Below are positions 4,152 through 59,629 of a stretch of DNA of 64,000 bases, one piece after another. The stretch comes from Psammoneis japonica (taxonomy: Eukaryota). The position numbers and the translations under genes are program-made. Location of the stretch: NCBI GenBank assembly GCA_008632985.1, contig QPGO01000032.1:59330-123329 (forward strand), read 5' to 3'. Below the pieces are notes generated by a model. It searched no databases and was not told the origin of the DNA. It saw only the letters and a program-made list of their open reading frames with translations. How positions within the stretch are numbered: position 1 is the first letter of the stretch; every line of letters begins with the position of its first letter.

Positions 4152-4164
4152 GCTAGAATAAAGA

Positions 4165-6288: not shown

Positions 6289-7846
6289 TCTCGAGTCAAG
6301 ATGTTGGTGCGGTCTAGCTTGATGTGCCGGTTCCTAAGCGTACGCTGTTGCTTTCGCCACCGCCATTGTCATCTTGTACTGTATGTGCAGAGAGCTTCAG
6401 CCGCAGAGCGGAGCGAGCGCGCCAGCGACGCGAGGAGATCACAACCATTTTTGTCTGTCTGCTACCCGAGAATTCGCTCTCTACATGTAGCCTCCCGCGA
6501 GCGCGAAAGGACTATCCTGACCGTTGTACGGTGTTTTGTGCAGTTTTTGTCCGCACTTTCTGTTAAGGGGGGTCATCCCCGCGTTTATCCTAGAATTACC
6601 GTTGCATTATTTGAATAAGATTTTTTATAGTGCTTATTTTTGAATGCAAGAATTGTTCATGGTCACACCCGATCACGCACGAAAACGAGAACCATCCCAA
6701 CACCGCGATCGAAGCACGACGATGATGATGACAATCATCGACATTTCTCAAAAACGCAGCGTGCCGTCTGTCAACTTTTCATGCACACACAATCTTTGAC
6801 ACATGACAAACATAAAACAAATGAGAATTGGCAGATGGACCACCTCTGTCACAGACTTGTGGCTTGTTCTGTTTTCACCACGGTGAAGCACGGTGAAACT
6901 CAGGAAAAATCATGCAAAACACGAGCCATTCGACCAAATTCAAGCTAAAAAAAAGTGGCGACCAACCCACCTTGAGTGGAGAGAGTTGTCATTCCTGCGC
7001 AGACAGTGGATCACTCTCAGGTTGTGAGCCTCACTTTTGCTCATCGCGAGGAGGGGCCATGCCACATCGCGAAACAACAAAACACCTTCAGCACGTTGTT
7101 GTTGACACCGGCGGTGAGCGTTTGCAATGCACCCACTTCCGCTCTGTTGACGCGATCAATGCATCCATCATTGTTCATCTTGTCCAACGTTTTGCATGTG
7201 GCATGGCATGCACTCTGCTTGCGCGGCATTCCTGCGTGAAGTGCACCGTCAAAGATCCAAGATCAACTGCCCCGCGCACAGTTTGATTTCTTTGAGCGCA
7301 ATGAAACATCACAATGGCCCCTGCGAATGGCACCCGTTTGAAGACAGCATCATTCTGGTGAGCAAAATTGTCATCAATGCGGGCCACTCTGTCCCAGGCA
7401 CTGGCTCAAGATGGCAATTTGCCAATTGCAACCACAACCAACACCCCACACGGACCCTCAGCTGTCTCCACTCCGTCCGCCAAGATTGCTGCTGCACGTG
7501 ATGCAACTCGCCCCATCACTGAGTTGCGTCCAACAGTCTCAGTTTGGTTTTTTGCCATGTTTTTGAAAACAAAGCTCCCCGGGATCACCACTTTTTATCC
7601 TGTTTTTCTGCGGAAAGGGTGAATTCCCGGGGAATTGCCATGAATTGCCCTTGCTCACATGTGTGCTGAACACACGAATGAAAAATTGTGCATTGGCAAT
7701 TCTCCTTGCTTCCCCTCTTGTGCATTTCCATGTGTGCCATGTGCCGGCAAACGTGCGGAACCACACATCAGACGCGCAAATTGAAAATCAGCAATCGACC
7801 AACCGCGACAAAAATGGGCAACACACCATGGCGCACTCGCATCCCA

Positions 7847-8091
7847 TGACAGGATTTGAACAAGATTTTAGTTTGTCACACACAATCATGTGTGCTTTTA
7901 GTTCCATGCGCGATGCGCGATGCAGTTTGCTTTCAAGCCACATGGCTCACAAGAATGACAACAGAAGCACCGACATCACGACACCAGTCTTTCGGCTCCT
8001 GCAACGGTCTCTGCACAGAGACTCATCCACCATTTAGACAGCAGCAAGGAGTTGTTGTTTTCTTCCCCCCCGTCATCTTCATTTCCTGACA
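7847..8091 (+). repeat. 5' LTR of the copia element
   Basis: TGACAGGATTTGAA...TTCATTTCCTGACA, aligns without gaps to 14828-15072. Confidence 0.96.
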
Positions 8092-9295
8092 GATTGACAG
8101 TCTCGGCTCAACATTCACCCATTTGAGCCGCCATCATCGTCATCGAGAAAATCGACGACGCGCACCGTTGGCGGTGGAAGCATGTGCCTGCCTTCTTCAC
8201 TGCTGCATGTTGGATTGGATGTGTGCGTTTGGATTTGTCCAATGCATGCAATCGCTGGACACATGCCATTAAACGGATGTTCATTTGGTCAGGAATTTCC
8301 GAATTCTCTTGGGCTTCTGAGATTCTGGATTCCTTGCAGCGGACACTGCTCCCATCGACAGACAGACCGACACATCTGCTCGCGTTCACACGCACACAAT
8401 GCTGTCACCCAACTCTGGTCCTGCTGCAAGCACACCAAGTCCATTGCCACCTGTCCACACCGGATTGCTGGTCTTCTGCAGTTCTGCAAGGTCCACGAGG
8501 ACAACTGTGGGAGGAAGTGATTCATGAATCTAGTCTACGTTGGGGCGAGTGTGCTTTTCCCACATTTGTTCGTCCCTCCACAGCGCCAATTCTGGCCGGC
8601 CTGATCGGGTCATCCAACCAACATGAAATGAGAAAGGTTCAGGGGTCTTGTCCACCTCCAGTTGGCTTGTCAGCAGGGGTTTTTAACCCGTGTTACTCCG
8701 CTCTCAAGCAACCCAAAGCGTCACTGGCTGTGGGTTCAGACGTGCTGGCACAACTCTGTGGACCAGACAGGAAGCTTGGCAATTGACTACAAACAGGACA
8801 GCACAACCCGGCGGCTTCTGACTTGCAAGACAGTTCAAGTTTTCAAGTCAAGTTTCAAGTCAGGTGTTTCAAGTTATGATGGGCTCCAATCCTGGGTGGG
8901 ACTCCGTGTGACATTGGGCCCGCAGAATTCCACGTACGAGCTCCACAGTAAATTTGTTGAGCAATGAAAACATCAATGATCACCAACAGAAAAAGAGGCA
9001 ATTTTACGAACGTATCTCCTCCTTCACACTTTTAGCACATGAATGACAGTTTGCATGGGTGTGTTCTGCAGACATCAAAGAATGTGCCCAGCGCATTTTC
9101 ATTGTCACAAATGTTGAAAATAGAAAGCCTTTGGCTTTGCAAAGTGACATGCGGCGAGATCCAAAAAACTGTTGATGTCACAGTTCAGTGCTACGAGGTC
9201 CCACCTGCTGGAGCTGGAGCGCGTCTTATTTCAAGTCCACTCTCCTGCTCCAGTCTGCTCTCCAACTCTAGTCCCAGCACCCAATCAGTTGCACC

Positions 9296-12200
9296 ATGGT
9301 TCTCACCAGACAGCAACAAACCAATGGCTTTGAGCACATCTTAGGCACTGTTCTGAATCAAGCCACAGACAGTCCATTGCACTCTGCCCTCAGCATTGAT
9401 GGCACTGATTTGTGCCAGGATCTCTTCACGTTTACTCCACTGCAGCTTGATGCCCTGGTTTACAATGACGGCACCAATCAAATGCCTTTGCCCCATGGCT
9501 GCAAAGCACAAATCGCTGCTTTGATTGGTTTGCACACAGTTGAAGCACGCGGCAGTGCTGATGTTAGCAACAACCCTCACTTTGTTTGCACATGAAGAGT
9601 TCACCAACTGTCATCTCAGCCCCAAGTGCGTGGCATCCCTCTCCATGGGTATGGCGCCTTCTGCTCCTGCTCCTGGTTTGTTGCCTCCAAAAACACGTGA
9701 CCCCATGCGTGACTTCAAGCGAGGCATCAAACGTGGCCCACTCACCTTCGCGACTCTCAAGTCAGACAAGCAGTGGCACACGTGGCACACCTCCATCGTC
9801 GCACAGGCCCGCTCTCAGGACGTCGATCGCATCCTCGACTCGATGTGCAAGCCCAACACAGCTAAGGACAAGGCCTTGTTTGCCAAACAACAGAAGCACA
9901 TGTTCGCTGCATTGGAACATGTCTTGCAAAATGACAAGGGCAAGGCACTCATTCGTGAACATGTTGGCTCCTCTGATGCCCAAGCGGTGTATCGCAAACT
10001 TTCCAAGCATGCCCTTGCATCCACTCGTGCATCCCTGGAGTCCTCGAGCCTTCTCACACACCTCACCTCTACTCGCCTTGGTGATGGCACTTGGAAAGGC
10101 TCCACCCATGCCTTCACACTCAACTGGCAGGACCAGCTTTGCAAGTGCAAAGCTCTTGTCCCCAACACGGATCATTTTTCGGATGGTCAGAAACGCGTCA
10201 TGCTCAAGAATGCCATTCACCCTGTTGAAGAACTTTGTTCGGTAAAGAATCAAGCCGATCAGTTTCGCGCGCAAAACGGCACGGGTCTTTCTTGTGAGCA
10301 GCATTGTGGGCTCCTGCTTTCTGCAGCGGCACAGTGTGACAGCATGTTCAACCCCAAGACAGCCCCACGCGCTCCCCGCCGTGCCATCTGTGAACATGAC
10401 CCAGCTCCTGACAACCCTGATGACGACGTATGCCATGACATTGACAGTGATGTTGATGTCCTTCAGGCTTGTGCTGCTCAGACTCGCGGCAACTCCCTCA
10501 CCAGGGAACAATGGCATCGCATCCCGCGGGACCACCAGTGCATCTGGGACACCTTGCCTCAGTCCACCAAGGCCATCATCCTTGGTTCACACACTGCCCA
10601 TGCCGGCAATTATCACGACTTGACAGCAGTCAACCTCCACGACCTCCGTCTTGGCAGCGATGGTGACGTGAACTTGTCAGCCAATGCTCATGACCTCATG
10701 TCCGCCCGTGAACCACCTGACGTTGCTGCCGACCCAGCCGATGCTAACCCCATCCTAGCTCACCACACCAAGCACAAGCCTTTGCCACCTGGTGATCTGC
10801 AACATCTTCTCATGCTCAAAAGGCCCCCTTCGGCCCGCTCTGGCAAGAAACCGCCCAGATCTTCATCCTCACGCCATGCCGAAACTGACATTGAGATCAA
10901 CAGCCACACTTGCCATTGCGTTGACAATCACAATGTCATCTGCTCTGCCTTGACTCATGCATCAACTCGCAAGGGTGCTCTCATGGATCGTGGCGCAAAT
11001 GGTGGCATCGTTGGTGATGATGTTTGTGTCATCAATCGCACTGGTCGTCAGGTTGACGTACAAGGCATTGACAACCACCAGCTTGTCGACACTCCCATTG
11101 TCACTGCAGGTGGCGTCATTCACACGCAGCGCAGACCAGTCATCGCCAACCTTCACCAGCGCGCTTGCACTGGCAAGGGCAAGACCATCCATTCTTGTGG
11201 CCAACTTGAGTGGCACAAACATGACGTGAACGACAGGTCCATCAAGGTGCCCAATGGTCTGCAACGCATCACCACCATTGATGGCCACATCATTCCCATC
11301 GACATCAAGGGTGGCCTTCCGTACATTGCCACACAACCACACACCGACGCTGAATGGGACATGCTCCCTCATGTCGTCCTTGCTGGCGATGACACCTGGG
11401 ACCTGTCTGTCCTTGATCGCCAGTTCACTGATGATGAAACATGGTACGACGCCGCATCCGACCTCCAAGACGACCCAACCACCAACCTGTTTGATGAGTT
11501 TGGCAACTGTCGTCACCGTCACATTGTCAACAATGCCATGCTCACTGATTCTGTCCTGGATGACCACCTCCTTCCAACGTCCGACTTCTTCCATGAATGC
11601 CATGAGCATCCTGTTTTGGCTTCCTCCCGAAGGACACTGTTTGCCGCACCTTTGACTGCACAACACTGTGTGCCCGCATGCCTGCCAGCACACACCTGAA
11701 AAAGGCACACAAGTCTCCCAACCCGGCTCTCAATGTCCACCAGCATGATGAACCCATCGCCACCGACACGGTGTGCTCTGACACACCCACCATCGACTCC
11801 GGCTGCGTCAGTGCTCAGCTCTTTGTCGGCACGGAATCTCTTGTCACCAACGTCTGCGGCACCAAGACTGACAAAGAAATTGTCAACACGCTTGAAGACA
11901 ACATCCGCAATCATGGTGCCCCCTCCAAGCTCATCAGCGACCATGCTCAGGTTGAGATCAGCAACAAGGTCCTTGGCATCCTTTGTGCCCTCTTCATCTC
12001 TAGTTGGCAAAGTGAGCCTCGCCACCAGCACCAGAACTTTGCTGAGCGCCGCTGCCAGACTGTGAAAACCATGGCCAACACAATCATGGATCGCTTTGGA
12101 TCTCCCGCGTGCACCTTGCTCCTTGCCCTCATGTGCACATGCTTTGTGCTTAACCACACTGCATCTGCCAAGCTACATTGGCATGCCCTCACTGAGGTGC

Positions 12201-14753
12201 TGTCCAGTTCCACCCCCGACATCAGCCCGCTCCTTCGCTTTCAATGGTGGGAACCCGTGTGCTGCACCACCTGGATGATTCCGACTGGCCGTCCGAATCT
12301 CGCGAACTTTGTGGTTGCTTCGTTGGCATTGCCGAACACATTGGTCATCAAATGACGTTCAAGATTCTCTCTGAAGACACTCAGAAAATTGTTCATTGTT
12401 CCAATGTGCGCTCCGCTCGCGACCCATCCACTCTGAACCTCCGTCTTGACCCTCCTGACAAAGGATCTGCTGAACCCGTTGTTAATCCCGACGCGACTCT
12501 CCGGATTCAATTGCTTCACCAGATGGGGAGATGATCAGGATGCTCAAAATGCCAGTCTTCAACCCCAAGGATGTCATTGGATGCACCTTCCTCATGAAAC
12601 CGCAAGAGGATGGACAACATCACAGATCCCGCATTGTCAAAGCTGTTGAAGACCATGATTGGGAAATTGGAGACAACCCTGAACTGGTCAAGTTCATTTG
12701 CTCTGTCAACAACAACGAACACGAGGAAGTTCTTGCCTGCAATGACATCATGCACCACATCGAGCAAGAAGATGAGGATTCTGCTCTCTGGAAGTTCCGA
12801 TGCATTGTCTCTCATGAAGGACCATTGAGACCTCATGACCCATCTTGGAAGGGCTCAAGCTACAACGTCATGCTTGAATGGGAGAACAGGGAGACAACAT
12901 CTGAACCCCTTGCCATCATTGCCAAGGATGATCCCGTCACCTGCACCATTTGGGCACGCGAACATGGCTTGCTCAAGATCAAAGGCTGGAAACATTTCTG
13001 GACCACAGCACGATGCCAGAAGAAGTTATTCAGCATGGCCAACCAAGCCAAGCTGCGCTCCTTTTGCACCGCACCACGATGCAAGCACGGATTTGAAGTG
13101 CCCCGGGACTACAAGCACGCCTTGGCTCTCAATGAATGCAACGGCAACCGCAAGTGGGGAGATGCAACGGACCTCGAGATGACTCAGCTTGATGAACACG
13201 AGGTCTTCCACGACTGTGGACACTACAAGGACTCCAGTGCTCCACCAGGACACAAGAAGATCAGGGTGCACCTCGTCCATGACGTCAAACACAACAGATG
13301 GCACAAAGCACGCCTCGTTGCTGATGGGCACCTCACGGATGTACCCATTGACAGTGTCTGCTCTGGGGCAGTGTCCCTCCGTGGCCTGCGAATGATGATT
13401 TTCCTGGCAGAACTCAACGACCTAGAGACCTGGGCGACCAACATTGGGAATGCCCATGTTGAAGCCACCACTGAGGAGAAGCTGTACATTGTGGCAGGCC
13501 CTGAATTTGGCAAGTTTGAAGGACACATCCTTGTCATCCACAAGGCTTTGTACGGACTCCACAGCTCCAGCCTCAGGTGGCATGAACGCTTTGCCAATTG
13601 CTTGCATGCTGAGGACTTCTTCCCGTGCCGTGCCAAACCCGACATCTGGTTGCGCAGGAATGGTGATCACTGTGAACATGTGGCAGCATGTGTGGATGAC
13701 CTGGCCTTCACCATGAAGGACCCACAGGCTTTTGCGGACACTCTCATGGAGAAGCACAAGTTCAAGCTCAAAGGCACTGGACCATTGGAGTTCCACCTTG
13801 GTTGCGCCTTCACCCGTGACCTGGACAGCACCCTGTGTCTTGCTCCTTGCAAGTGCATTGAGCACATGGTTGACAACTGTGCACGCCTCTTTGGGGAGAA
13901 ACCTCATTCTGATGTTCTCTCGCCTCTTGACAAGGGAGACCACACTGAGCTTGACACCTCCGAACTGCTTGAGCCAGATGGCATCCACCAATTTCAATCC
14001 TTAATTGGATCCCTGCAATGGGCTGCATCCCTTGGATGCATTGACATCACTGTGGCCGTCATGTCCTTGTCTAGCTTCCATGCAGCCCCTCGCCAAGGTC
14101 ACTTAGACCGCGCCAAGCGTGTCTGCGGATTCCTCTCCAAGATGCAACATGGTGCCCTCCGAGTGCGCACTGAGGAGCCCGACTGTTCGGATGTTCCCAA
14201 GCCCATGTATGACTGGTCCCAGTCTGTGTGCGGGGAGGTAGAAGAACTGCTCCCACAAGATGCACCTGAGCCACTTGGCAAGTTCGTCACTGTGACCCGT
14301 TGCGTTGACGCAAACTTGCTCCATTGCATGCTCACAGGACGCTCAGTCACAGGCATCCTGCATTTCCTCAACAAGTTTCCAGTTGATTGGTTCTCCAAGA
14401 AACAAGCAAAAGTCGAGATTGCCACGTGTGGATCTGAGTTTGTTGCCGGGACCTGCGTTGAGCAGATCATTGATCTGCACATCACTTTGCATCATCACCT
14501 TGGTGTCCTCATTCGTGAAACCTGTTGCATGTTCGGGGACAACAAGTCAGTTGTGGACAGTGCCACCATCCCGCACTCTAAGTTACACAAGCAACACACT
14601 GCCCTCTCATTCCACCATGTACATGAGGCAATTGCTTCCGGTTTCCTCGAGTTTCACTTCATCGAAGGCTCCCACAAGAACCCAGCTGACATTCTCAGCA
14701 AGCACTGGGGTTGCTCCCAGGTGTGGACCCTCCTTCATCCCCCAATGTTTTGA
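9296..14753 (+). pseudogene. copia gag-pol polyprotein, frameshifted and hypermutated
   Basis: Gag start MVLTRQQQTNGFEHILGTVL; protease LMDRGANGG; integrase TDTVCSDTP, LISDHAQVE, SEPRHQHQNFAERR; RT KARLVADGH, KALYGL, CVDDL; RNase H CVDAN, ATCGSEF, GDNKSVV, NPADILSKHWG. Split over ORFs starting 9296, 9525, 11678, 12244 and 12531. Confidence 0.95.
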
Positions 14754-14827
14754 AACTTTGATCCTGAGGCTTCCTGCCAATCTGACTTTGAATCTGTCGC
14801 TGTTGACCCCTCAAGCAAACTGGGGAG

Positions 14828-15072
14828 TGACAGGATTTGAACAAGATTTTAGTTTGTCACACTCAATTGTGTGTGCTTTTACTTCTGCGCGCGACACGCG
14901 ATGTAGTTTGCTTTCGAGCCACATGGCTCACAAGAACAATGACAGCAGTGCTGACATCATGACACCAGTCTTTCGGCTCCTGTGACGGTCTCTGCATGGA
15001 GACTCATCTGCTGTTTAGACAGCAGCAAGGAGTCATTGTTTTCTTCCACCCAGTCATCTTCATTTCCTGACA
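14828..15072 (+). repeat. 3' LTR of the copia element
   Basis: Preceded by a purine tract and followed by the TCCCA target duplication. Confidence 0.96.
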
Positions 15073-15229
15073 TCCCATTTGTGACAGCTTTTGTCAAGCA
15101 ACAATGACACCAGTCAATCACATGATTAACATTGCGATCTACAGTGTAAAAGATAAAATGAAATGGAAGTGTGATGGATGATGTTGAGCAGAAAACTGGT
15201 GCATTGATTGTCGCACTTGTTCTTTTGTC

Positions 15230-15660
15230 ATGCGGTCACAAATGCAAGCCATGCGGCATTTGCAGCAAAGCCCAAGGCACAAGCAGAACTGCACATGGCT
15301 GACAAAAATGTGGCAGATTGAACAGTCATGTTCACTCTTCCAATTGACACATCTCATGGGCAGAATGAAGCGAGTCGTTTGGAATCACTGTGTTGCCGTG
15401 CAGCTGCAAATGCAAACCATGAGGCATCCAGAACGAAGGCCAAGGCAAAAGCAGAGCCTCACAAGGCTGACAAAAATGTGGTGGATTGCGTGGTCATGCT
15501 TGTTCTTTCCTTTGACCTGTCTCACATGTGCAGAATGCAGCGGCATTCCCTCTTGTGTCGCATGGTCACAAATGCAAACCACAAGGGCTCTAGAGCAAAG
15601 GACAAGGCAAAAACAGAACCTCACACAAGCAACGTTAATGTGGCTGATTTGGTGGTGAAG
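15230..15660. repeat. Degenerate tandem repeat, unit about 165 bp, about 2.7 copies
   Basis: caaatgcaa(g/a)cc anchors at about 15239, 15407 and 15569, each followed by similar caaggca(a/c)aa(g/a)caga...aatgtgg sequence. Confidence 0.75.
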
Positions 15661-17394
15661 TTTCTTCTTTCCTTGCTCCACCACAAGGGGCCGCTTTGTG
15701 TCGATGTGTCGATGCATTGCACAGTGCGTGCTTGCTGGCTGCAGGGCTGCGCTGCACAGTCACAAGGATAAAAGCACACCCGCCTTACTGTGATTGCCGT
15801 ACATTGCCGCATTCCATTCATTTTTGTTCCCCTCCCCTGAGCCCTTTCAGGCGTTCCTTCCCGCAAACTCACCCTCATTTCCTGGGATTCCCCCAAAAGG
15901 GTGAGGTGACTCCCCGTTGCCCTGGCCATTTTGGGGGATCCCCAAATGGGCAAAACCAAGCCAACAGAGACAAGACGTGTTCCAGTCCCAGGTGACACAC
16001 AAAACGACAATCGATTTCAAACATAAATTGTGCATCTCTTGTGCGTGCATCATTTGAACACAAAATGCTCAGACGGATGGGCTTCCACAGGTGTGCCAGA
16101 GCATGGACACACAAACAGTTTTTTTGTTGGCACTCACCTCCTCATGGGACATGCATCATAAATTCCTTCTTCTGCAGACTCAATGCTGATTGTACGACAG
16201 TGCATTGGATGCTGATTTTTGGTTGCAGGTGGAACACCTGCCAGAAGGTCTTGCAGAAAAATTGTTTTATTTGACATTCAAATGATGGCAACAATTTTGC
16301 CGAAAATCATCCATTGTGTTGCGACTCATTTGTCGCAATGAAAAACATGAACAGCACAAAAACAATGACATCGCAACACTGATGCAAGTCTTGTTAGTGC
16401 TGCAAAACATTCAATTTTGTGTGAATCTATGCTTTTGGTGGTGAAAGCTTGTTTGCAAGTGAGAGACCATGCAAAAATTGCAAATGTCGTTTTTGTGCAC
16501 GATTTGGGTCACGTGTGGCTGGAACACGTCACAACTCCATTTGCTGCCACCACCAACATTTGCCTGGAACCCACCCATGTTCCAGCCTCCAATGCCTCTG
16601 CTGCTCCCAAGAAGGCTGCTGCCACCCCATTGTGCTGCAGATGTTTGTGGGCCCAGAATTTCTCATGCTGAGTTGATGCCCCCACCCATGCTGCCACTCC
16701 GTTGGTCGCCACTCCACAAGCCTGACCCATTGGCTGCTTTTAGGATTGCTTTGGGAAAGCTTGAAAAGCCGGTTGAGTGCAAGAGTGCTGGTGTTGCCAT
16801 TGACCGAGGAGCCACAGTGTGTGTCATGCTCAAGGTGCAAGCTGCTGTCTGTGTGCCACAAGCAAATGGCTTCTCAGCATGCCACGAACGACGCAAATGG
16901 ATCTGTTGACTTTTCTGGGAAGTCAATTGTCTTAGATTCTGCTGGCCTCAACCCTGCCAATGTTGCAAGCCTCCCATTGTAGGGGGATTGCACCACTTGG
17001 AATCATTGTCAGTTTTGTTGCCTTGGCCACTCCCTGGCAACTCACTGCCACCAAATTGGCGCTGCTCTGGTCACCACCTGATTTCCTCTTGGATTGGACA
17101 AGGTCTGGACAGCTTCCCGACAGTGCACTCTGGCACCATCCTGGCAGACCTCCTGGTTTGCTGTCCCACTCACACTCTGAGCAATCTCCCGGTCTGTCAA
17201 TTGTTGGCAATTCATTTGATTGGTTTAACGAGTGGATGATTGCACGGCGTTGGGTGCAGAAACGGATTCATTGTTTCAATTTTTGCTGTCTGTCCATCTG
17301 GCAGTCATGACTCTCATCACTTCTCTTTTGCACTGGAAGATCTTCAATCCTGTTTTTACCAGGCTTTTGATTCTCCTTGTGTGTGGGGGGGGGG

Positions 17395-17440
17395 TGTCAG
17401 TGGAGAGAGTCATTCCTGCACAGACAGTGGATCACTCACT
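17395..17440 (+). repeat. Dispersed repeat, possibly the start of an LTR of a second element; homologous to 6975-7018
   Basis: agtggagagagt(tgt)cattcctgc(g/a)cagacagtggatcactc occurs at both sites. The 17395 copy starts with TG directly after a G-run resembling a polypurine tract. Confidence 0.5.
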
Positions 17441-19874
17441 TTCACCTTTTGCCCCCGACGCACCAAAAACAACAAAGCGCTGCATGGTGCATCAGGTTGG
17501 AGGCCTGCAACTCTGCACCCATGGGGATTTGATTTTCAACACGTTGCACAGTTGCTGTTTGTGGTCATGATTGCTTGATGCACTCCAGCCCCAACAAGTC
17601 TCATGCTCTCCATCGTGAGTCCATGTGTCAACCACTGTCATGTGTGCTGCACACACCGGAAGTCTCCTCACAGACTCTTGGGGAAGCAAGGCAGATGATG
17701 TGCCAGGGTCACATGCAGGCAATTTGTTGCCATGTCCTTTGGTGGTGTGCTTCAAAAAGTTTGCAGAGAGACGAATTCTCCATGGTGGCAAAAGTTTTTT
17801 GTGCACACAGGTTCATGCAGGGATTCCAGAGGCATTGCAGCAAACTGTCCATCCGACTCATGCAAGAGTCAAAATGTGTTGACCTTTGGGTGTGAGCAAG
17901 TGCATGCGCACAAATGGTTGATGCACAGACTTGCAATGGAGAGTGGCCCTGCCGGAGGCATGTGAGCAGCAACAGCAGCAGCTGTCATTTTCAGGATCAC
18001 CTCACAGACCCCAAGAACCACATGTCAGTGGAAAGCTCTCACAGAGCTGAGCATGTGTCAGCAAAGAATGTGTTGTTTGAAGTGTGTGCAACTCAAATGT
18101 GCACTGGCCCAAAATCAAGCCACACTCCAAGTGAAACCTTTCCTTGTCATGGCAACAGTCATGTTGACTGCATGTTTCCCGTGCTTTTCACTTGTTGAAA
18201 ACACATGTCCACATGTGTGCACAATTGAACAATGCGTCAATTGGGCATTTGATTTTTCACTCCTCTCCTCACTCATTTGTCTCCTCTCTTGGCCAAAGCA
18301 ACATGAGTGAAGGAGTCAGCAACCCACTTTTTCCCTTTCTTGCCTCCTGTGCATCAGGATGCACAAAGACATCATCATGCTTGCACTTGCCAAGCTTTTT
18401 TGGTCTTCACCCATCCTTCTTTGCCCTTGTCTCCTCTGTGCTCTCCACGCTGTGCTTCCCACTCCTGTTCCCAAGCCCCTTGTTCTCCCAAATTGTCTTC
18501 ATGAACTGCCACACCTTCAATGTGCCAAAGACAATGCAGTCACTCAGGATTCCTCTGCCTTGAAGAACCCTCAGGTGAACCTCTGTTCAACGCTTCAGCG
18601 TGTCCGCTCTCTAAACTTCATTGAGTCATCATTGCTCTGGCAGGTCCAATGTGACGTGATGAGCCATTGTGGTCTCTGCTGCTTTTCATGAAAATCCAAA
18701 TTTTGGAGGGGAGGAGTTTGCAAAAGACACAATTTTTGGCAAGCTTTGATCATGGAGTCGCACACAACAAATGGAGCATTGCTTGCACACCCCCTGCTGA
18801 ATTTGAAGGAAACATCAAATGACCATGATGGCAAGTCACCGTGAAACTCCTGTTGCTCTCATGCTTGTTGCAGCTGACCCAACCAGAGCAGCATGTGGCA
18901 ATGCACACAAGATGCGTTCCAGCCCCAGGTGGGAGCTTGTGGTGCTGACGTGTGACACAAATGATTTTTGTCATCCGTCGCATGTTTTGCGTGTGCATTT
19001 GTGCATGTGACATTCCAAAAAAATTGTCCAGACTTGCTGTTTTGCAAAGTCCCAGATGCTTCGCACAACGAATTTGTGGAAACAACAACACACCAGTTGC
19101 ATTCTTCAGACAGTTGCATTCTTCAATGTCTGAAGAATGCAACTGGCTGAGCAAAAAATGATGCACTTCAATCATGGACGAGTTTGTGCGTTCGCAAAAT
19201 TGCCTCATTTTCTGTTGGCGATCATTGACATTTTCATCACCTGATGATTTTGCTGCGGAGCTCGCATGCAGAATTCTGTCGGGCCCAATGTTGCACGGAT
19301 TCTCACCTGCATCTGGAATGTGTCACAACAAGCAAGCATCACATCAGAGCAGCTGCAGCCACAAAAACACATGACAAAAGCCCACTTCCAATGGTGTGTG
19401 CAAGTTTTTCTCTGTTGTCATTTTTGCCAGATCAGCACGCTGCTGATTCAACGCTGTTGTGGCAGCAAGGACATTGTTTGGCGAGCCACCCACACCCACC
19501 CACACTGCAGTGGCACACAAACACACAGGTGAAAAGCTGGTGTGGGGCATGAGGCTGGCACAACAAGCACAGTGTTTCACCCCATCAGCAAGTCTGCAGC
19601 TCTGCAAGCGGTGGGGGTGGGTGGAGCAACACTTGTGTGAGCATTTTGCTGTTTTGCAGCTGGGCGTCTGAGCGACATTTTCCTGGTGCTGACCTGTGTG
19701 CACAAAGCTGCCCCAGCCACTGCAGAATTTTGCCGGCATTGCAACAGAGAATTTCCCGAATGTCCAATTTTGAGCCACAAATTTCAGGAAATTTGTGCAT
19801 CTGACAATCTCGGAAAACTTTGGCAGCTTGTCGCGCAATGTGTCAGCAAAGAACAATGAACAAGAACCACGGTG

Positions 19875-22800
19875 TCATGCATCTGCACTCTTCGTTGGTG
19901 CATTTTGTGTGTGCATGTGAGCACTGCATTTCTGTGACCAAATCCTTTCCTTCTTACCCTTTGAGCAAGAATTGGACATTTGTGGGGTCGGCAGTTGTGG
20001 TGTTGGGGAAACAGGTGGCGGAGGGAGCGCGCGGAGCGCGCCGGGAGAGGGAGAGAAAAAGGGTTGGCCAAGGGTGCGGACGGACGGTCGGGAGGAGGAG
20101 TTGGTGACGGAGGGATGGCGGAGGAGGAAAGCTTGACATGCAGAGAGATGGTTGGAGAGAGCAAAGCCAAAGTCAAGGCTGAGGGTTTGGGAAGCCCAAA
20201 GTGGGGGTGTGGCAGCATGGCAGGAGGAGCCGAAGTGGGCGGGGGAAAGTTGTTTCCAGGCCGCGTTAGATTGGGTGAGGAGGTTGGAAGGAGCTAAAAG
20301 GGAGTTGGTGAAGGCAGAGAAGGATGCTTGAGAGTTAGAGAAAGAGGATGGATGGGACCAGGGCGGTTTGGGGGGGAGGGGGGGGACGGAGGAGGAGGCA
20401 GTGGTGGAGGCGCCAAAAAAGAAAAGATGGAAGTGGTGTCCGATGCCTCCTGGGTGATCGAAGGCAAAAGGGAGGAGGAAGAGGCCTGCTTGGTTGATGG
20501 TGTTGATGATGTCAGAACCGTGGGCGGAGGATGTAGAGCGGCCGAGGAGCTTGTCCCGAGTGCTGCTGAGGTGAGCCTTGTCAAGTGGGTTTTCAGGGAT
20601 GGGCAAACCAGGTGCAGGAGGCGGGGGAGCGGGCGGCACGGTGATGTCAATTGCTGTGGGTTGATGGGTGGATGGGGCGTCTGGTGGTGTGGAGCCGGGG
20701 GTGAGTTGGACGCCAACGTCGGTGGGGTGTTTTAGAGGGTGGTCGGGTGGGAGTCCGGCAGGGTCAACGTAGACTTGTTGGCGGGATCGGCAGAGGCCGC
20801 ATGGAGGACCAAGGGTCTTGATGATTGCACAGACCGTGTCGCGGATGTGGTTGGACAGGGGGCCTTTGTGCATTTTGGAGCAAGCAAAGGCGTGATCGCC
20901 GTGTGGGTCGGGGCGGGCGTGACCGCATGGGCAGTTGTGTTGGGAGAGGTTGGGTGGGATGATGGGGAGACGGAGCTTGCGCAAGAGGAGGATCGTGAAA
21001 AGATGGGGCGGAAGGCGATTGGAGGGTGGGATGCGGGACAGGGAGTGAAGGCATGGGCTTGTGAGTTGCGACAGCAGGGATGGGAGTGTCGGTTGGATGG
21101 AAGGATCGGCGAGGATTAAGGGGAGGGTGTGGTGTGTGTGATGGTGCAGGTGGAGACGCTGTGAGAGACCGCGCAGGTTGTGGTGTTCGACAGCATGCGA
21201 AAGGGAGGTAAAAGAGGGGGAGTCGAGCTTGAGAAGGGTGGGAGCACAGTGGCGGAAGATTTGGTAGAGGGAGAGGGTGGAGCGGGGGTTGGACCATGAA
21301 CCGAGAGCGGAAGAGCGGCTTGAGGGAAGGTGGAAGATGGCGCCACCGGCCAGTGGGATGCCATGTTTGGTGCAGCGGATGGAGCGGAGGAGGGAGGTGA
21401 TGAGGGCAGGGATGGCGACGGCGGAGATGTCGCGACATCCAATGCCGCCCAAAGAGACGGGCAGGGTGGCAATGAGTTTGGAGGCAGATGGAAGGGGGTC
21501 TGTGCATTGGGTGAGGCAGGTGAGGAACCGCAGGGAGTGGCCAATGATTTTGTCGATGAAGGGGGATGCCCACTGAAAAGGAGGTGGAAAGTCGTCGGAG
21601 GGTAAAAGGTTGTAGTGTGCGTCCGCAGATGGCAGGTGGGTGATGGAAGGGAGTGAGCACTTGCGGAAGAGGGTGCTCTGTGTTTGTTTGTCGGTGAGCC
21701 GGACGGTGAGGCGATGAAGGTTGGTGGCGAAGGAAATGGCCTTGTTGCGGAGGAAATCGAGGGCGAAAGCGGGTGAGCCGATGGGCCGACCGAGGAAGCG
21801 AGTGCCGGTGGTGATTTCGGGTGTGATGTGGGGATCGTTGTGAGGGTTGAGGAAGGCTAGGGCCTCGGACAGTGCAGCAGCGTCGGAGGGTGGAAGGCGG
21901 TTGATGGGAGAGGAGCCGGTGATGGAGGTGAGAATTTGGGTCTTGGAGGGGTTGAGCTTGATGCCGAATTGGGGACCGGAGGTAGAAAGGCGCTTGAGGA
22001 ACCAGGGGAGCTGGGAGAAGGGAAGGAAGATGTGGGTGTCATCGACATGAGAAGAGGCAGCGGACTTGGAGCGGGGAGGGAGTCGACGATGTAGGTCATC
22101 ATTGATGGGTTGGAATGCACGAGCCAAAACAAGGCAGGAGAAGGCAGGGCTGAGGGGGCAGCCTTGAGCAAATCCTTCGGGCTGAGAGAAGGAGGACCAT
22201 TGTAAGCGGTGGTCACGGTACCAGCAAGTGTTGGGGTTTTGGCAGAGCAGGTCGAAGAAAGGGATGAGGGGGTGGCATTCGTCAGAGTTGTCGAGGGTGT
22301 CGCGACAAGCATCACGGGAGCATTCGTTGAAACAATTTGATGAGTCGAGGAGGAGGAGGGCCTTGGTTGGAGTGGAGTCTGGGTCAAAGAATCGCTCAAT
22401 GTTGGCATGGGTGGTGTCGACTAGGTGGTCGAGACCGCCTTTGACGCCGACTCCGAATTGGCCGGAGTGGAGGAGGTTGGCAGCGAAGGTGGCGGCAAAG
22501 AGGAACATGATGAGGGTGCCGACGATTCTGCGAAGGGCAGTTCCGACGCCGATGGGGCAAAGTTTGGAAAGGTTGGAGGAGTCTTTGTGGAGAGCGAGGA
22601 AGCAGTTGGAAGAAAAGGTGGGCTTGATGGATGCAGGGATGTCTGCTGCAAGAATGAGGTCGAGCAGATGTTTGAAGGTGAGTGGGCAGGGGTGTGAGGT
22701 GGAGGTTGGGGTGGAGCGGTGGTGGAGGGCGCAGGCCTTGAACAGGTTGGTGGAATCGGCAAAGGCGCCGGGAGCTTTGCCTGGTTTACATTTGGTGAGG

Positions 22801-23885
22801 GCTTTGCGGAGGTCGTCAGTGGTGAAGTGCAGGGGGGAGGAGGTAGAGCGGTGGTGTCTGGCGGATGGGGGGGAAGGAAGCGGTGGGTGTTTGCGGGGCG
22901 GGCAGAGTTGCTTGACAAGCTCCATGCGTTCGGGGGTGAGAGAGGCGACGGGGAGGGAGGAGGCAGCCCGGGCGCAGGCGGTGTGGAGGTTGTTGATGTT
23001 GTTGGCGGCAACTTGGGCGGAGTGGGTGTGGGATGTGTTGTCAAAGTCGGGAGATTCGTCGGATGTGTCGGGAGCAGGGATCGAATGGGATTGGTCGTAG
23101 AGGGCGCGGATGGAACCGTTGCGGAAGAGGAAGAGACGTTGAGTGATGGTGGTGGAAAGGGGGATGTTGGAGTGCTTGGGTCGAGGGTAGAGGATGAGGG
23201 ATTCAAAGAGGAAGAGGAGCTTGAAAAAAGGGTCGGAGGCGGTTTGCCAAGGAGGGGGTGGGTCGTCGTCGGTGTCGAAGGGCTCAGAGGAGTCGACAGT
23301 CCATTGGACGAGATGATGGAGGGTGAGGAGGACTTGGAGGCGGGAGGAAGGGGGGAGTTTGTGCCAGAGGGAGGCGCGGAAGGGTGGGGGCGACAGGGGT
23401 GGCGAGTGGAGCCATTGAAGGGAGGTTGTCCAAGCAGTGAGCTCTTGACGTGGGCAGGAGGATGCAATGAGCTGAATGTTGGTAGTTGTGCAGGGGTGAA
23501 AATGGATGTTAGAAATGTGGGTGTGTGAATGTGCATCACGGAGGCATGTCTTGGTGGTTCGTTGGCAATGACGGCATGGATGTAGGTTGTGGAGCTCGAA
23601 GAAGGAGTCGGGGATGGTTTGAAGGCTGCGGTGCTTGTGTGTGGTAGAGAGATGTGTGCGCAAGAGCTTGGGTAATTGAAGCGGAGGAGCATTGGGCGGG
23701 AGGGAGAAGGAGCAGCCCTCAAAGGGGCAGGAGCAGTTGGCAACCCCCAGCGGGGTACGGGTGCCGATGGGTTCCATTGCTGGAGGGTGGGGCGGAGCGT
23801 GTTGGGGTCTTGATTGGCATTGGTGGCCTGTTGGGAGAGTGTGGACCACTCGGCGAGGTGTGTTGGAGCAAAGGTGTGGACCCAT
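19875..23885 (-). pseudogene. CRE-type reverse transcriptase / RLE polyprotein with catalytic YVDD changed to HVDD
   Basis: C2H2-like fingers (CPFEGC...HLSTTH); RT motifs PIGVGTALRR, QFGVG, LDSSNCFNECSR, GFAQGCPLSP, HVDD (22038-22049), GIKLNPSKT, FLGRPIG, LPVSLGGIG; CPCG...DPHGDHAFAC knuckle; PTDV...AIDITV endonuclease-like motif. Confidence 0.9.
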
Positions 23886-24452
23886 TGGTCAAAGACGTCG
23901 AGAAGCTCGAGGTCGCGTTGAGAGCAGTCGAAGTCCATGTCGGACGGGTCGGGGTGCGGTGCATGTTCCGCAGGCGGGGGTGGGGTGTTGTGTGCCAAGG
24001 CGGGAGTGTTGGTGGCGGGGGTGTCGGGATCCATGGTGGCAGTGTCGGAGGAGCACGTGGAGCCGTCGAGGTCGGGAGGGTGTGAGCGCTTCTTGCGGTG
24101 TTGGGAGAGGGGTGTGGGGGTGCTGACGCGTGTCGTGGTGGGTGGGGATGGCAGTGTGGGTTGCCAGGAAGCTTCGAGGAAAGAGAGGGCTGTTTCGGAA
24201 AGGGTGTCTCGAGAAGGTTGGGAGGTGGCGTGGGCAAAGGATGTGGATGTTTGGGCAGGAGAGGGAGGCGGCCGTCGGGAAGGGAGGTCCTTGAGGAGGT
24301 GTCTGGGGATGTTGGGGCAGAGGTGAAGGGTGGCGTCGGTGACATCCACGATGAACGGGGTGGCGAAAAAAAGGAGCTTGTGTCGGATGGGGGTGTCACT
24401 GTGGGAGAAAAAAATGGGGATGACACCAAAAAGGTTGGGGGTGGTGAGAAGC

Positions 24453-26540
24453 TCATCGTAGTCTAGTTGGAGGGCATGGAAATGTTGAGTCGGCTCGTGA
24501 TGATGATGAAGCTGTCGGCTTGGCGTTTGTTGATGGCTTGCAGGCGTGTGGCGATGGGGAGGATGTCAGGGGAAGAAGGGAAGGGCACTGCCGAAAGAGA
24601 AAGGCCGAGGACATGCATGATCGGAGGCGGTGAGTTGGGAGGGTTGACAACAGATGGAAGAGAGGTCCATGTCTCAGGCGTAGAAGTGGTGAGGAAGTGG
24701 ACGTCAGACTGAGGGGTCTTGGCGGTTTGGGCGGAGAAACTTGGGAAACGAGAGGGGCGGACGCCGACGTGATCGAGGAAGGTGCTGTGTTCAGAGAAGA
24801 GAGAAAGGGTGGGGTCTGAGGGGTTGGCAGGTGAGAGAGATTTGACGTGAGCGTGCAGTTGTTGGAGGAGAAATTCGCAGGTGCGTCGAGATTGACCGCA
24901 GGTTTTGGGGTTGATGCCGGCAAGAATGCCGCGGGCTTGTTCGGTGAAGGAGTTGCAAGCAGGGATGAGGAAGGCAGCGCAGCAAGTCCAGGGGTTGGGA
25001 GATGCGGGGGTGTCTTTGGCATCCGAAGGAAGGAAGTCGGGAGAGGCAGAGGAGGCGGAGTGGTGCTTGAATTGTGTGGGAACAAAGCAAAGGACTTGGT
25101 CACGGAAAGGGAGGAACTCAAAGGTGTCATGGGAGGGAATGGGAACAAAAGTGAGCTTGAAGCAGGAGGCCCATTGATTGTGATGGGGGCGGGAGCGGCG
25201 CTTGGTTTCGGAGAAGGCAATGTCAGCAATGTCGAAGAGAAGACTGGGTTCGCGTGTGGCGTGTGTTCGGAGGGTGGTTTGGACGATAGAGCGGATGCTG
25301 TCAACGTGATGGCGGGTTCGGGCTTGTCGGCAGGGTCGGATGGGTGTGGGAATTGGAGAAGGAGCTTGGTGGTGGTCGGGGGTGGTGTGGGATTGACGGG
25401 GTCAGTGGAGGCATCGGGTTGTGTGTTGGTGTCAGAAGGATCAGGAGGTGCAGCGGCGGGAGGGGGGGCAGCGGCAGTGGTGGAAATGGAAGAGGAGTCA
25501 AGGGACGGAGGATGGGAAGGGGAGGTTGCTGTGTGGACAGTTGGGGGTGGAGGCTGGGTTGGAGTTTTGGGCGGGGACGTGGGTGGAGGGTTGGGATCAC
25601 GTTGCGGGGAGGTGGGGGTCAGAAGCAAGGGTTGAGACATTTGGGAGGTTTGGGAGTCCTGGACACTTTCTTGGAGGGAGGGCCAGTTGGATTGGTCGTG
25701 GAGGGAGGACATGGCGGAACGTAGAAGGGAGCGAAAGGTGGAGTCGAAGTCGAAGGCGGGATCGGAGGTAGAGTCGGAGACTGGGGCGGGATTGGAGTCG
25801 GAGGCGTGGGCAGGAAGGTGCAGCGCAGGTTTGCCGTGGGGCGCAGGTGTGGCGTGTTCCAAGTCAAGAGTGGAGGCGGGGTTAGAGTCATCAGTGTGTT
25901 GCACAGATTTTCCGTGTGTCGCAGGAAAAGTGAGATGTTCAGGGTTGAAAATGGAGGCGGGAGCGGAGGTGGAGTCAGGGTCAGGGTCGTCGATGTTGAA
26001 GGCGAGAGTGGAAACAGAATCGTCAATGTGTTGCGTAGATTTCCCATGTGTCGCAGGAAAGTCGGGGTGTTTGAGGTTGAAGGCGAGAGCGGAAACGGGG
26101 CCAGAAGTGTCGGTGCATTGCGGAGATGTCTCGTGTGTCGCAGGAAAATCGGGGTGTTCAGGGTCGAAGGTGGAGGCGGCAGCAAGGTCAGAGGCAGAAG
26201 TGAGAAAAGGATGGAGGTTGTAGATGTAGCGCGCAGGCATTTTATGTGTCGAAAGGAAGTTGTTGTGTGTTGCAGGAGAGGAGAAGGGGTGAGCAGACGT
26301 GACGGGGAGGGCAGTTGGGGAGGACATGTGGTGTCGTGACTGAGGCGAAACTTGGTGATGGGGGGCCATTGAGGGTGTCAATGTGGAAGTTATGGGGGGC
26401 ACAAGGGAGGGCGGGAGAAGAGAGTGGGGAGACAAGGCAAGTGGTCGGAGCACGACTGATGGTGCGGGGGTGATCGGGAGGCTGTCAGGGGTGTCAGAAA
26501 GGGGTGATGGAATGTGATGGGGGGCCATTGAGGGTGTCAA
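24453..26540 (-). pseudogene. Pro/Ser/Thr-rich upstream ORF of the CRE element (probably frameshifted)
   Basis: 695-aa low-complexity ORF with three FPATH(G/E) repeats, same strand and upstream of the RT ORF. Confidence 0.5.
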
Positions 26541-26700
26541 AGATGGAAGTCATGGGGGGCATGAGGGAGGGCAGGAGAAGAGAGTGGGGAGACAAGGCAA
26601 GTGGTCGGAGCACGACTGATGGTGCGGGGGCAATCGGGAGGCTGTCAGGGGTGTCAGAAAGGGGTGATGGAATGGGGGTGTCAGAAAGGGGTGATGGAAT
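26355..26700. repeat. About 159-bp tandem duplication plus a short extra unit in the CRE 5' region
   Basis: Units start near 26355 and 26514 and are near-identical; differences include TA/CA, CA/TG, CG/CA and TG/CA. Confidence 0.9.
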
Positions 26701-27149
26701 GGGGCTGCAGTGCGATGGAGTGGGGCTGTGATGTTGCTTGTGGAGGGTCGGAAAGAGGAAGGATGGGAGGGAGGTGGTGGTGAAGGGGAGGGGAGGGGCA
26801 ACAGTGGGGAAGGGGATGTGGGAGCAGCGCACGGGTTGAGGACGATGAGGAAAATGGCGAAAACCGAAACGACGCGAGAGAGGCACCGCAGAGCGAAAGG
26901 CCCAAAGAGCGGTGGTGGGTCGGGAGGCCATTCCGGAAGGTGTAGCGAAGCGCTGCTTGACTGGGGAGTGAACCCCGTCGGCGTTGTCAACAAGGCTTTC
27001 ATGTCGACAGAATTTTTCGGCGACGTGCATGCATGCCGCAACGGTGGCGTTTCTAATGTCCAAAAAATTTGCGCGCGAAAATCTCCAACGGAAAACTCTG
27101 ACAAAAAAATCGCATGCATCTGCAACATTTTTTAGGCTATGCGTGTGCG

Positions 27150-34558: not shown

Positions 34559-35041
34559 CCCTTCAACCACCGGACTTGAGAGCAAATTTCCACAGGTGGA
34601 GATTTGCTTGCTCTTGTCACAAATGCATTAAATGAAACATTGCCAGACATGGGGCAATGAAGAATTCATGCCATTTTGTTTTGGAGCACACATTTGCAGC
34701 CGAAAACTCTTGTGGGCCATTGCTGCAATTTAGAAAGTTCAATGTCAACTTTTAACACCGGTTTTTTTTGCATGCCCCATGCATGGAACTAAATCTCAAT
34801 TTTTAACAATGACATTTATGATGGGTTGTTGTCACAACAATGGAGCACCAGATGCCACACCCTTCTTGAAGCAAATCTCCACCAATGGAGATTTGCTTGC
34901 AACAAGCAAATGCATGTGGCACATTTTATGCAGATTGCACATGATGCAACATTTTTGTGCCACGTCCATTGCATTGTTGTGCAAATGCATGACACATCAC
35001 AACTCAACAAGTGGAGCAATTGCTCCATGGTGGTTGAAGGA
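34559..35041. mobile_element. Non-autonomous piggyBac-like MITE (about 483 bp)
   Basis: TTAA (34555-34558) + CCCTTCAACCACC ... GGTGGTTGAAGGA + TTGA (35042-35045). The right TTAA duplication appears as TTGA. Confidence 0.75.
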
Positions 35042-35105
35042 TTGAGAGCACTGTTTTGGAGTGCACATTTGCCAAAAGCCATGCTGGGGACCATTCTTTG
35101 AAATT

Positions 35106-37708: not shown

Positions 37709-37976
37709 AAAGTTCAGTGTTGACTTTCAACACTGGGTTTTTTGCATGCTCAATCCATGGACAGAAAGGGTCCAAATCTCAACCTTTGACAATGAAGTTT
37801 GTGATGAGTTGCCATCACAATGGAGCAGCAAATGCAACACCCTTTGACCAAATCTCCACCGGTGGAGAGATTGTGCATGATGTGACATTTTCACACTGTG
37901 TTCATTGCATTGCCACACAAATGCATGATGTGCCACAGTTTCTCAAGTGGAGCAAATCTCTGTGGTGGCTGAAGGG
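37709..37976. mobile_element. Right part of a second piggyBac-like MITE copy
   Basis: Homologous to 34734-35041 and ends GGTGGCTGAAGGG + TTGA (37977-37980). Confidence 0.7.
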
Positions 37977-43941: not shown

Positions 43942-44220
43942 AGGCCTGTTCCAGCCCCAGGTGATGAGCAATCCATCACGCGTGAGGCCGATTTTCTGTG
44001 CAGTCCAGCACATTGAACTCCTTCAAATTTGATTGTTTTGAAAATTGAAAGGTGAGCGCACACAAAGAAATGCAAGTTTTGTGGTGTGCACTCACACCCC
44101 TCGATTTGGAAAAACCCCGATTTTGAAGGAGGAGTCTGATTGCGTTGGGGCTCCAATTGCAAAAATGGGCCAATGGTGGGAATCAAGCATGTGCGCATCA
44201 CCTGGAGCTGGAGCAGGCCT
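43942..44220. mobile_element. 279-bp MITE with 29-bp terminal inverted repeats
   Basis: AGGCCTGTTCCAGCCCCAGGTGATGAGCA (43942-43970) versus TGCGCATCACCTGGAGCTGGAGCAGGCCT (44192-44220), 26/29 complementary; flanked by CA on both sides. Confidence 0.8.
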
Positions 44221-44699
44221 CAAATCACCTCAGGGTCCTGTCATCATTCTCTTTCAGGAACCACACGAGCCAGGCTGAGACCAAAAGAAAAAGCAAACCT
44301 GTCATGTTGTTGGCAAAAAGAAAGATTGGAAGACTTGGAGCAAAAACCTGAACAAGCAAGACAGATTTTGGAATGAATTTGTCAAACTGGCACAGGTTTG
44401 TTCTCAAGCTCCAGGTGGTGACAAAAAAGTTTTTCACAGTTGGCTGCACGATTGAGAGGCCACACACCTGATGGACCAGTGCCAAGAGAATCAACAAGCA
44501 TTGCTGGGAGCAGCACTGTTTCAAGCAGCCTTTTCCACTGGAGAAAAACAGGCTGTTCATTGAAGTGGAGGTGAGTTGGAATGAGTGCAATTGAGAAGGA
44601 GTCTGGGGAGGAAGCATTTGAAACCAGACAGACAGATTTTAAAAAACTGTTCATGAAGGTGAGTTGTTGAAGGCAGCTGTGAAATTCAGCATGTGCAAA

Positions 44700-59586: not shown

Positions 59587-59629
59587 CGCAAACAAGGCAG
59601 CAGCAAAGGGAAGCGAGGATTCGCCTGCG

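Follow-up and report, generated by a model that had tools for sequence, protein, structure and literature searches.

A window of 64,000 nucleotides (nt) from the diatom Psammoneis japonica (GenBank assembly GCA_008632985.1, contig QPGO01000032.1, positions 59,330 to 123,329 of the forward strand) carries a decayed Ty1/copia long terminal repeat (LTR) retrotransposon. The two LTRs of this element differ mainly by exchanges of CA for TG, termed swaps here, and the origin of these swaps is the subject of this analysis. In the repeat DNA of this diatom, TA and not only CG is a hypermutable ancestor of CA and TG. Throughout, "the window" denotes the whole 64-kb stretch, and positions refer to it. 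A repeat search returned one direct-repeat pair of 245 nt (7847-8091 and 14828-15072; spacing 6981), the members of which align without gaps at 87% identity. Both LTRs start with TG and end with CA, and the same five bases, TCCCA, adjoin each of them (7842-7846 and 15073-15077). The element is composed as follows.

7842..7846, + strand: target-site duplication TCCCA, 5' side (flank read and alignment)
7847..8091, + strand: 5' LTR, 245 bp, TG...CA (repeat search and alignment)
7887-8, 7905-6, 7914-5, 7956-7, 7959-60, 7968-9, 8002-3, 8016-7, 8028-9, 8031-2 and 8053-4, + strand: swap sites in the 5' LTR (script count)
8092..14827, + strand: interior of the Ty1/copia element (pol homology in three frames; composition of the whole element)
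12531..14753, + strand: open reading frame (ORF) of 740 amino acids (aa) with RVT_2 at residues 236-431 (Pfam, E=2.3e-18), bearing Tyr and Arg replacements
14822..14827, + strand: purine run GGGGAG adjoining the 3' LTR (sequence read), polypurine-tract-like and a putative tract by function
14828..15072, + strand: 3' LTR, 245 bp (repeat search and alignment)
15073..15077, + strand: target-site duplication TCCCA, 3' side (flank read)

The 740-aa frame contains the copia-type reverse transcriptase (RT) domain RVT_2 (PF07727) and has 958 homologues at E≤0.001, with identities of up to 62%; PF07727 is present in all 120 of those listed. Using six long homologues, tblastn located pol homology in three frames at element positions 3359-6904 (window about 11205-14750), with the upstream stretch matching N-terminal parts of the homologues. 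Thus, pol is frameshifted and this copy is dead. The ORFs at 9525-11699 and 11678-12355 are without any Pfam domain, and an Rfam scan of the whole window returned no family. The element belongs to a very high-copy family, probably of hundreds to thousands of LTR copies, as 8180 contigs of the public run X1 align at 80% likeness over 7600-14827, and the summed X1 depth in the LTR bin reaches 108,436 compared with about 60 for single exactly matching contigs. Run X1 contains 59% of the sampled words of the window. The DNA directly upstream of the insertion (7600-7840) is itself repeated, with a summed contig depth of about 1357 versus about 60 for single exact contigs, and the copia element was therefore inserted into an older repeat.

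The LTR pair differs at 32 nucleotides, which a script count resolves into 21 events, namely 11 double differences, five single transitions, and five transversions. An earlier sequence-only reading had given the same tally, and the script agrees with it item by item. All 11 adjacent double differences are CA versus TG; in eight the 5' copy has CA and the 3' copy TG, and three are the reverse, an asymmetry that is not significant (p=0.23). The five single transitions all lie in pyrimidine-purine (YpR) dinucleotides, at LTR positions 61 (TG/CG), 77 (CA/TA), 89 (CA/CG), and 125 and 133 (both CG/TG), and the number of transitions outside YpR sites is zero. Transversions are found at LTR positions 36, 55, 119, 221, and 225. 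When 27 transitions and five transversions were placed randomly on the 5' LTR 20,000 times, a mean of 0.59 and a maximum of five swaps were obtained, so the 11 observed are not due to chance. The intact target-site duplication and the mechanism of LTR formation place the differences after integration, and both strands were hit, since CA and TG outcomes occur in each LTR; both points had been made in the sequence-only reading. Its warning that dating by LTR divergence overestimates the age of such elements is borne out by a raw divergence of 13% (32/245) compared with 2% (5/245) outside YpR sites. Among the 40 of 2068 variant places in X1 that were listed, the only one in an LTR is the transversion at 8071, where this copy has C and all 26 X1 contigs have A; it is therefore private to this 5' LTR. 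None of the 40 is one of the 11 swap sites. A degenerate LTR pattern gave 0 matches in metagenome_contigs and 0 in viral_contigs.

The direction of change was read from pol. For polarisation, 120 of the 958 homologous proteins were aligned to the element by tblastn, and only positions represented in 50 or more homologues, with a conservation of at least 80% among these, were retained, resulting in 419 columns; a stricter cut (391 columns) gave the same picture. Conserved tyrosine (TAY) is kept in only two of its 21 columns, the others now encoding Cys (TGY, 11), His (CAY, four), Trp (two), and Phe (two). Arginine is kept in 18 of 32 conserved columns and replaced by Cys or Trp in five, by His or Gln in eight, and by Ser in one; 13 of the CGN Arg codons were kept and 13 changed. 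By comparison, 0 of 39 conserved His, Gln, Cys, and Trp columns changed to the swap partner (Fisher test against this class: Tyr p=1e-9, Arg p=6e-6). The polarised changes thus comprise 15 from Tyr (TA) ancestors and 13 from Arg ancestors. It follows that the swaps are not direct flips between CA and TG and that their ancestors were palindromic. The proposal of a palindromic dinucleotide resolved on opposite strands in the two copies, made from the LTRs alone, is thereby supported by the massive conversion of conserved TAY and CGN codons next to unflipped CA and TG codons.

CA and TG are stable end products, and the palindromic ancestors include both TA and CG, with TA as the more mutable class. 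Loss of TA amounts to about 0.88 per copy (15 of the 17 Tyr codons that stayed TAY or became TGY or CAY), and loss of CG to about 0.5. Methyl-CpG decay is not the sole cause of the YpR changes in the element. Ordinary CpG decay, named in the sequence-only reading as the outcome that would overturn it, is excluded for the element as a whole by the TA ancestors seen directly in pol, while for the 11 LTR sites it is unlikely rather than excluded. A TA loss of this size beside five transversions per 245 bp over both copies would be indirect evidence for a rate orders of magnitude above background.

Synonymous positions record an earlier phase. Of the 65 conserved A-first codons, 43 follow a C and one follows a T, and T|G is now found in one. 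The frequency of T at the third position is 0.01 before A-first codons, compared with 0.16-0.18 before C- or T-first codons, and relatives have T before A-first codons at 0.21 on average. At conserved G-first codons, C|A is now found ten times. The TA of Tyr codons mostly became TG after the death of the copy, yet T|G is missing at codon boundaries; synonymous TA was therefore purged to C|A earlier, by selection in the active lineage. This purge of synonymous TpA implies long exposure of the copia lineage to the same pressure. A possible strand bias is visible at 12134-14712, where TA to TG (11 Cys and two Trp) exceeds TA to CA (four) and CG to CA (eight) exceeds CG to TG (five). Such a bias would favour pyrimidine change on the minus strand, but the numbers are too small for significance, and the Cys:His asymmetry of 11:4 is likewise non-significant (p=0.12).

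The composition of the window is mosaic. Over the whole window, the observed/expected ratio (O/E) is 0.24 for TA, 0.62 for CG, 1.52 for CA, and 1.48 for TG, and the respective values for the element are 0.14, 0.58, 1.59, and 1.70. A regional profile of dinucleotide O/E in 1-kb bins separates gene islands from blocks of transposable elements (TEs) and repeats.

1-7000, 27001-29000, 39001-44000 and about 47001-50000, unstranded: gene islands, TA O/E 0.34-0.74, CG 0.85-1.17
7001..27000, unstranded: TA-depleted block with the copia element and an RVT_1 element resembling a long interspersed nuclear element (LINE), TA 0.01-0.23, CG 0.25-0.96
30001..39000, unstranded: block poor in TA and CG, TA 0.00-0.15, CG 0.05-0.35, CA/TG up to 2.07
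44001..46000, unstranded: block poor in TA and CG, TA 0.01-0.05, CG 0.12-0.15
51001..64000, unstranded: TA-depleted block including a 281-bp array, TA 0.03-0.22, CG 0.56-0.94

The profile switches sharply between the island state and the TE/repeat state, and blocks reach a TA O/E of 0.00 with CA/TG at 1.9-2.07. The depletion is therefore confined to TE and repeat blocks and is not a genome-wide mutation bias. In these blocks, TA loss runs ahead of CG loss, as at 24001-26000, where TA is at 0.07-0.10 while CG is still at 0.95. The same division appears across the 3|1 boundary between codons, a site at which change is mostly synonymous. TA O/E there is 0.37-0.70 in six ORFs of TA-normal gene islands (overall CG about 1; host-type Pfam domains in three), 0.05 in the copia RT frame, and 0.16-0.24 in four other ORFs of TE blocks.

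Swaps are not limited to the LTRs. When the window was compared with itself, 15 repeat pairs emerged; differences between young repeats are mainly CA/TG swaps, as in the following.

58635..59592, + strand: 281-bp tandem array of 3.4 copies, 12 swap sites among three full copies
26355..26674, + strand: 160-bp tandem duplication at 95% identity, two swaps, one TA single, one CG single
19189..19307, - strand: fragment akin to the element interior at 8895-9012, 80% identity, six swaps, three TA-retaining and three CG-retaining singles

In the 281-bp array, 12 CpGs are intact in all three full copies, five sites are CG in some copies only, and 0 TA occur in 958 bp. Tandem repeats lack an RNA stage and nevertheless show swaps, which places the process at the DNA level. 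A 168-bp unit is present three times, in degenerate form (about 72% identity), at 15221-15674, immediately after the 3' LTR and its target-site duplication; its copies show nine CA/TG swaps in 277 aligned bases. The LINE-like element at 19875-26549 (- strand) has an open 1337-aa frame with RVT_1, a GC skew of 0.52-0.56, a TA O/E of 0.07-0.19, and a CG O/E of 0.8-0.96; an apparently intact LINE-like element of this genome is thus already TA-poor. An older LINE-like copy at 35149-37659 (+ strand), 69% identical, has lost both TA and CG, with CG found at 101 sites in copy A only and at eight in copy B only. For the pair 20002-22516 and 35149-37659, 50 CG-derived swaps are expected and 58 are seen, an estimate derived from eight shared CpGs only.

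DNA-level TpA hypermutation together with CpG decay in TE and repeat blocks is, taken as a whole, the likely explanation of the swaps. On this account, a Ty1/copia element would have inserted, making the TCCCA duplication, and then decayed. TE and repeat blocks would undergo regional hypermutation, with TpA changing to CpA or TpG through a T:A to C:G transition on either strand, and decay of CpG to TpG or CpA would run alongside at the slower pace given above. A double difference of CA and TG would result wherever the same ancestral TA or CG was resolved on opposite strands in the two LTRs, and CA and TG would then persist. The most likely chemistry would be enzymatic adenine deamination at TpA, aimed at foreign or repeated DNA that is silenced, in keeping with the proposal for the chlorarachniophyte Bigelowiella natans; here, we infer both the enzyme and its targeting signal. 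A broader and more tentative reading, which falls somewhat short of an even chance, is that diatoms possess a TpA-directed DNA-editing defence that nearly erases TpA and is the same system as that of the chlorarachniophyte, old in the supergroup of stramenopiles, alveolates and Rhizaria (SAR). Retrotransposons, LINE-like elements, and tandem repeats would be its targets, and TEs would purge synonymous TpA and keep constrained TpA, for example in Tyr codons or LTR signals, until silenced.

For the 11 LTR swaps themselves, descent of most of them from TA is probable, each single site being assigned provisionally; a CG majority among them is unlikely, and the remaining weight lies on mixtures. 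The chief rival holds that methyl-CpG decay made all 11, starting from an LTR that was CpG-rich at insertion and had hot and cold CpG classes, so that TA loss elsewhere would be irrelevant. CpG decay is indeed active in the element, as shown by the 13 of 26 changed CGN codons and the ten C|A at conserved G-first codons, and CG-type outnumber TA-type singles between the LTRs by 4 to 1. An ancestral LTR with a CG O/E of about 1.7 (hand estimate) would be required, but LTR-like terminal repeats of relatives do reach 1.6-1.9. The counts fit this rival poorly, however. Beside the 11 swaps, six LTR CpGs are intact in both copies and 2+2 singles retain CG, from which independence (sA*sB/2i) predicts 0.33 CG-derived swaps. 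A single CpG decay rate of 0.25-0.6 yields 0.4-3.1 expected, with P(≥6)≤0.12, and misfits the 6 intact, 4 single, and 11 swap sites with a chi-square of about 12 or more at every rate tried (hand calculation). Hot and cold context classes are visible for TA and not for CG: TE-wide CpG survival by tetranucleotide context spans a narrow 0.40-0.64, while TA survival rises from ATAT (0 seen of 154 expected) through ATAG/CTAT (0.025) and ATAC/GTAT (0.03) to TTAA (0.25). Under the CG reading, the contexts GCGC, GCGA, and ACGG would be both intact and fully resolved, as would identical contexts in the 281-bp array, and swap sites are interleaved, at distances of 2-4 bp, with CpGs left unchanged in the two LTRs. 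Four LTR sites are still TA (TTAG three times, GTAG once), and their contexts survive better than those of the 11 swap sites when these are read as TA (Mann-Whitney p=0.004); when read as CG, p=0.10. Over the 300 bp that precede the 3' LTR, CA is the outcome of 5/5 CG-derived changes and TG that of 2/3 TA-derived ones, and the swaps of the 3' LTR are TG in 8/11. Several points nevertheless weigh against TA ancestry of the LTR swaps. T stands in only 1/65 positions before conserved A-first codons, suggesting that the lineage had been purged of neutral TA by the time of insertion, and about 20 extra TA in the LTR at that time, equivalent to a TA O/E of about 1.1 (hand estimate), would need functional constraint on those sites. 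Both LTRs retain three TA sites unchanged, although the loss at Tyr codons is about 0.88, which requires rate heterogeneity, and such heterogeneity could in principle also rescue a model of hot and cold CpGs. A preceding A or following T does not distinguish swap sites from shared CA/TG sites (29/84 versus 101/308, p=0.79), and all results come from one 64-kb window of one assembly. On balance, complete derivation of the LTR swaps from methyl-CpG is improbable without being negligible.

Other explanations carry much less weight. That modified TA and CG in TE blocks were misread by a long-read base-caller as random CA or TG, or that the assembly is otherwise at fault, is very unlikely. Such an artefact would suit changes that are confined to likely silenced or modified blocks and that proceed at an extreme apparent rate. 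However, 750 contigs of X1, which may be the source sample, match the stretch at 99% or more, including, within the TA-depleted interior, 293 nt with 0 differences and 319 nt with one; the contig depth is about 60. Furthermore, TA at codon boundaries was resolved to C|A (43) rather than T|G (1), whereas Tyr codons turned mainly into TGY, a footprint of selection that no artefact can make, and Illumina data from B. natans revealed de novo mutations of the same type, as far as the accessible text of that study goes. Direct interconversion of CA and TG, as a tandem double change or through a short-lived intermediate (CpA to TpA and then rapidly to TpG), finds some support in the 281-bp array, where neighbouring sites show each of the three 2:2 splits that four copies allow and most swap sites are without an intermediate state. 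It is extremely unlikely, given that 0/39 conserved His, Gln, Cys, and Trp codons flipped, compared with 11/46 CA/TG sites of the LTR (Fisher p=0.0007). Pre-integration editing, either A-to-I editing of the RNA genome by an ADAR-like enzyme or deamination of complementary DNA (cDNA), can be discounted almost entirely as well. ADAR-type enzymes favour U before the edited A, according to the available part of a preprint (bioRxiv 10.64898/2026.01.13.699255), and such editing could account for part of the T|A to C|A purge in the active lineage. But any change that predates integration is passed on to both LTRs and therefore cannot create differences between them; in addition, tandem repeats without an RNA stage show the same swaps, and both strand directions occur within each LTR. 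Post-insertion hypermutation of TpA accompanied by CpG decay thus remains the preferred account.

The footprint appears to be of the same kind as that recently described in B. natans, which belongs to another branch of the supergroup. As reported in the accessible part of that preprint (bioRxiv 10.64898/2026.01.13.699255), 231 of 302 de novo nuclear mutations fell in two regions of integrated viral DNA, where the rate was about 1000x that of the background, and this in some lines only. Almost all were A to G or T to C, those all being at TpA and leading to TpG or CpA; low-TpA coding sequences were enriched in reverse transcriptase and DDE domains, and an ADAT2-like adenine deaminase was proposed by the authors as a genome defence. 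To judge from the same text, both systems share TpA to TpG or CpA change on either strand, restriction to particular regions of foreign DNA in an otherwise ordinary genome, and long-term TpA depletion with enrichment of CpA and TpG. They differ in that B. natans is a chlorarachniophyte (Rhizaria) studied in mutation-accumulation lines, whereas the present case is a diatom (stramenopile) with a fossil record only. Targets here are LTR and LINE-like retrotransposons and tandem repeats instead of integrated viruses, and depletion is near saturation (TA O/E 0.00-0.23), compared with 0.45 in the nucleocytoplasmic large DNA virus (NCLDV) region of B. natans. The near absence of G:C to A:T change reported there is not shared by this element, in which CpG decay accompanies TA loss. 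A TA context ranking, with ATAT at its lower end and TTAA at its upper end, is visible in the diatom.

Fungal repeat-induced point mutation (RIP), too, is a heavy, regional transition hypermutation of repeated or foreign DNA that inactivates transposons and inflates their apparent age. Its chemistry is opposite: RIP converts C:G to T:A, mostly CpA to TpA, and so creates TpA (textbook knowledge, also stated in the portions seen of PMC2621366 and PMC7296669), whereas here TpA is destroyed and CA/TG codons are stable. Diatom DNMT4 is related to the fungal RIP enzyme RID, its function being given as unknown in the available text of PMC9998398. Methyl-CpG decay of silenced transposons, which changes CG to TG or CA on both strands, is present here as the slower process, but cannot remove TA and covers the Arg and not the Tyr changes. 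Clusters of deaminase-type, context-specific transitions in retroelements are also known from APOBEC and ADAR editing in animals. This editing takes place before integration, targets cDNA or RNA, and affects one strand, so the two LTRs would not be made to differ. The element resembles the diatom Ty1/copia elements of the CoDi type in being copia-type, carrying RVT_2, and residing in a diatom, and CpG methylation is reported for these elements in the accessible portion of a 2009 paper on diatom retrotransposons (PMC2806351). In that portion, the terms "TpA" and "dinucleotide" do not occur, and in a literature search neither hypermutation at TpA nor transposons poor in TpA were found to be reported for diatoms.

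If the preferred account is true, diatoms, a major group of phytoplankton, would be a second and independent lineage in which hypermutation targets TpA in foreign or repeated DNA, a process otherwise known from a single chlorarachniophyte preprint of 2026, judging by its accessible text. It would then point to a widespread genome defence that is RIP-like but chemically opposite (AT to GC). Age estimates from LTR divergence would be inflated several-fold in such genomes, and the systematic changes of Tyr to Cys or His and of Arg to Cys or His weaken homology searches for TEs. Testable predictions are that ATA and TAT contexts are the hottest and which TA sites an active transposon must keep. 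With TAA and TAG lost, TGA is almost the sole stop codon, so long spurious ORFs arise in repeats and gene callers will over-predict there. Very long ORFs with no Pfam match, often on both strands, fill the TA-depleted blocks (e.g., 50762-53371, 59537-63028, and 9525-11699), and at E≤0.5 Pfam returned no domain in the long ORFs of the 50-64 kb block.

As a control, 78 related copia elements from metagenomes were passed through the same polarisation pipeline. Changes of Tyr to Cys or His were found at 22/1667 columns, of Arg to Cys, Trp, His, Gln, or stop at 96/2350, and flips at 9/2838; TA O/E in these relatives is 0.33-1.0, compared with 0.14 in the present element. Their LTR-like pairs have ordinary spectra, with 0 swaps in the elements L001, L046, L052, and L053 and one each in L008 and L047; a repeat of L013 at 65% identity has six. 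A metagenome contig from another source (L064, 2561 bp) has a TA O/E of 0.33 and T before A-first codons at 0.04, and six of its 19 conserved Tyr are now His (five) or Cys (one), a weaker instance of the TA-loss signature. In many relatives, intact ones included, C precedes G-first codons at only 0.00-0.08. CpG decay in still-coding relatives appears from their sequences to have gone by the synonymous route. L002, L005, L008, L026, L027, L065, and others have open RT frames with 0-2 stops in about 730 aa, and before G-first codons they have C at only 0.00-0.03 and T at 0.54-0.64.

The gene islands of the window contain genes of ordinary composition, among them one for an LRR_6 protein (40198-41409). 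At 41786-42895 (- strand), an asparaginyl-tRNA synthetase (class II core) has a best match at 89% identity, and the named matches among the 120 listed are all diatoms, including Amphora, Epithemia, Cylindrotheca, and Skeletonema; a dinoflagellate source with 5-hydroxymethyluracil was rejected on the strength of these matches. In a further island at 47975-49693 (- strand), the encoded protein has CCCH zinc fingers together with YTH and DCD domains.

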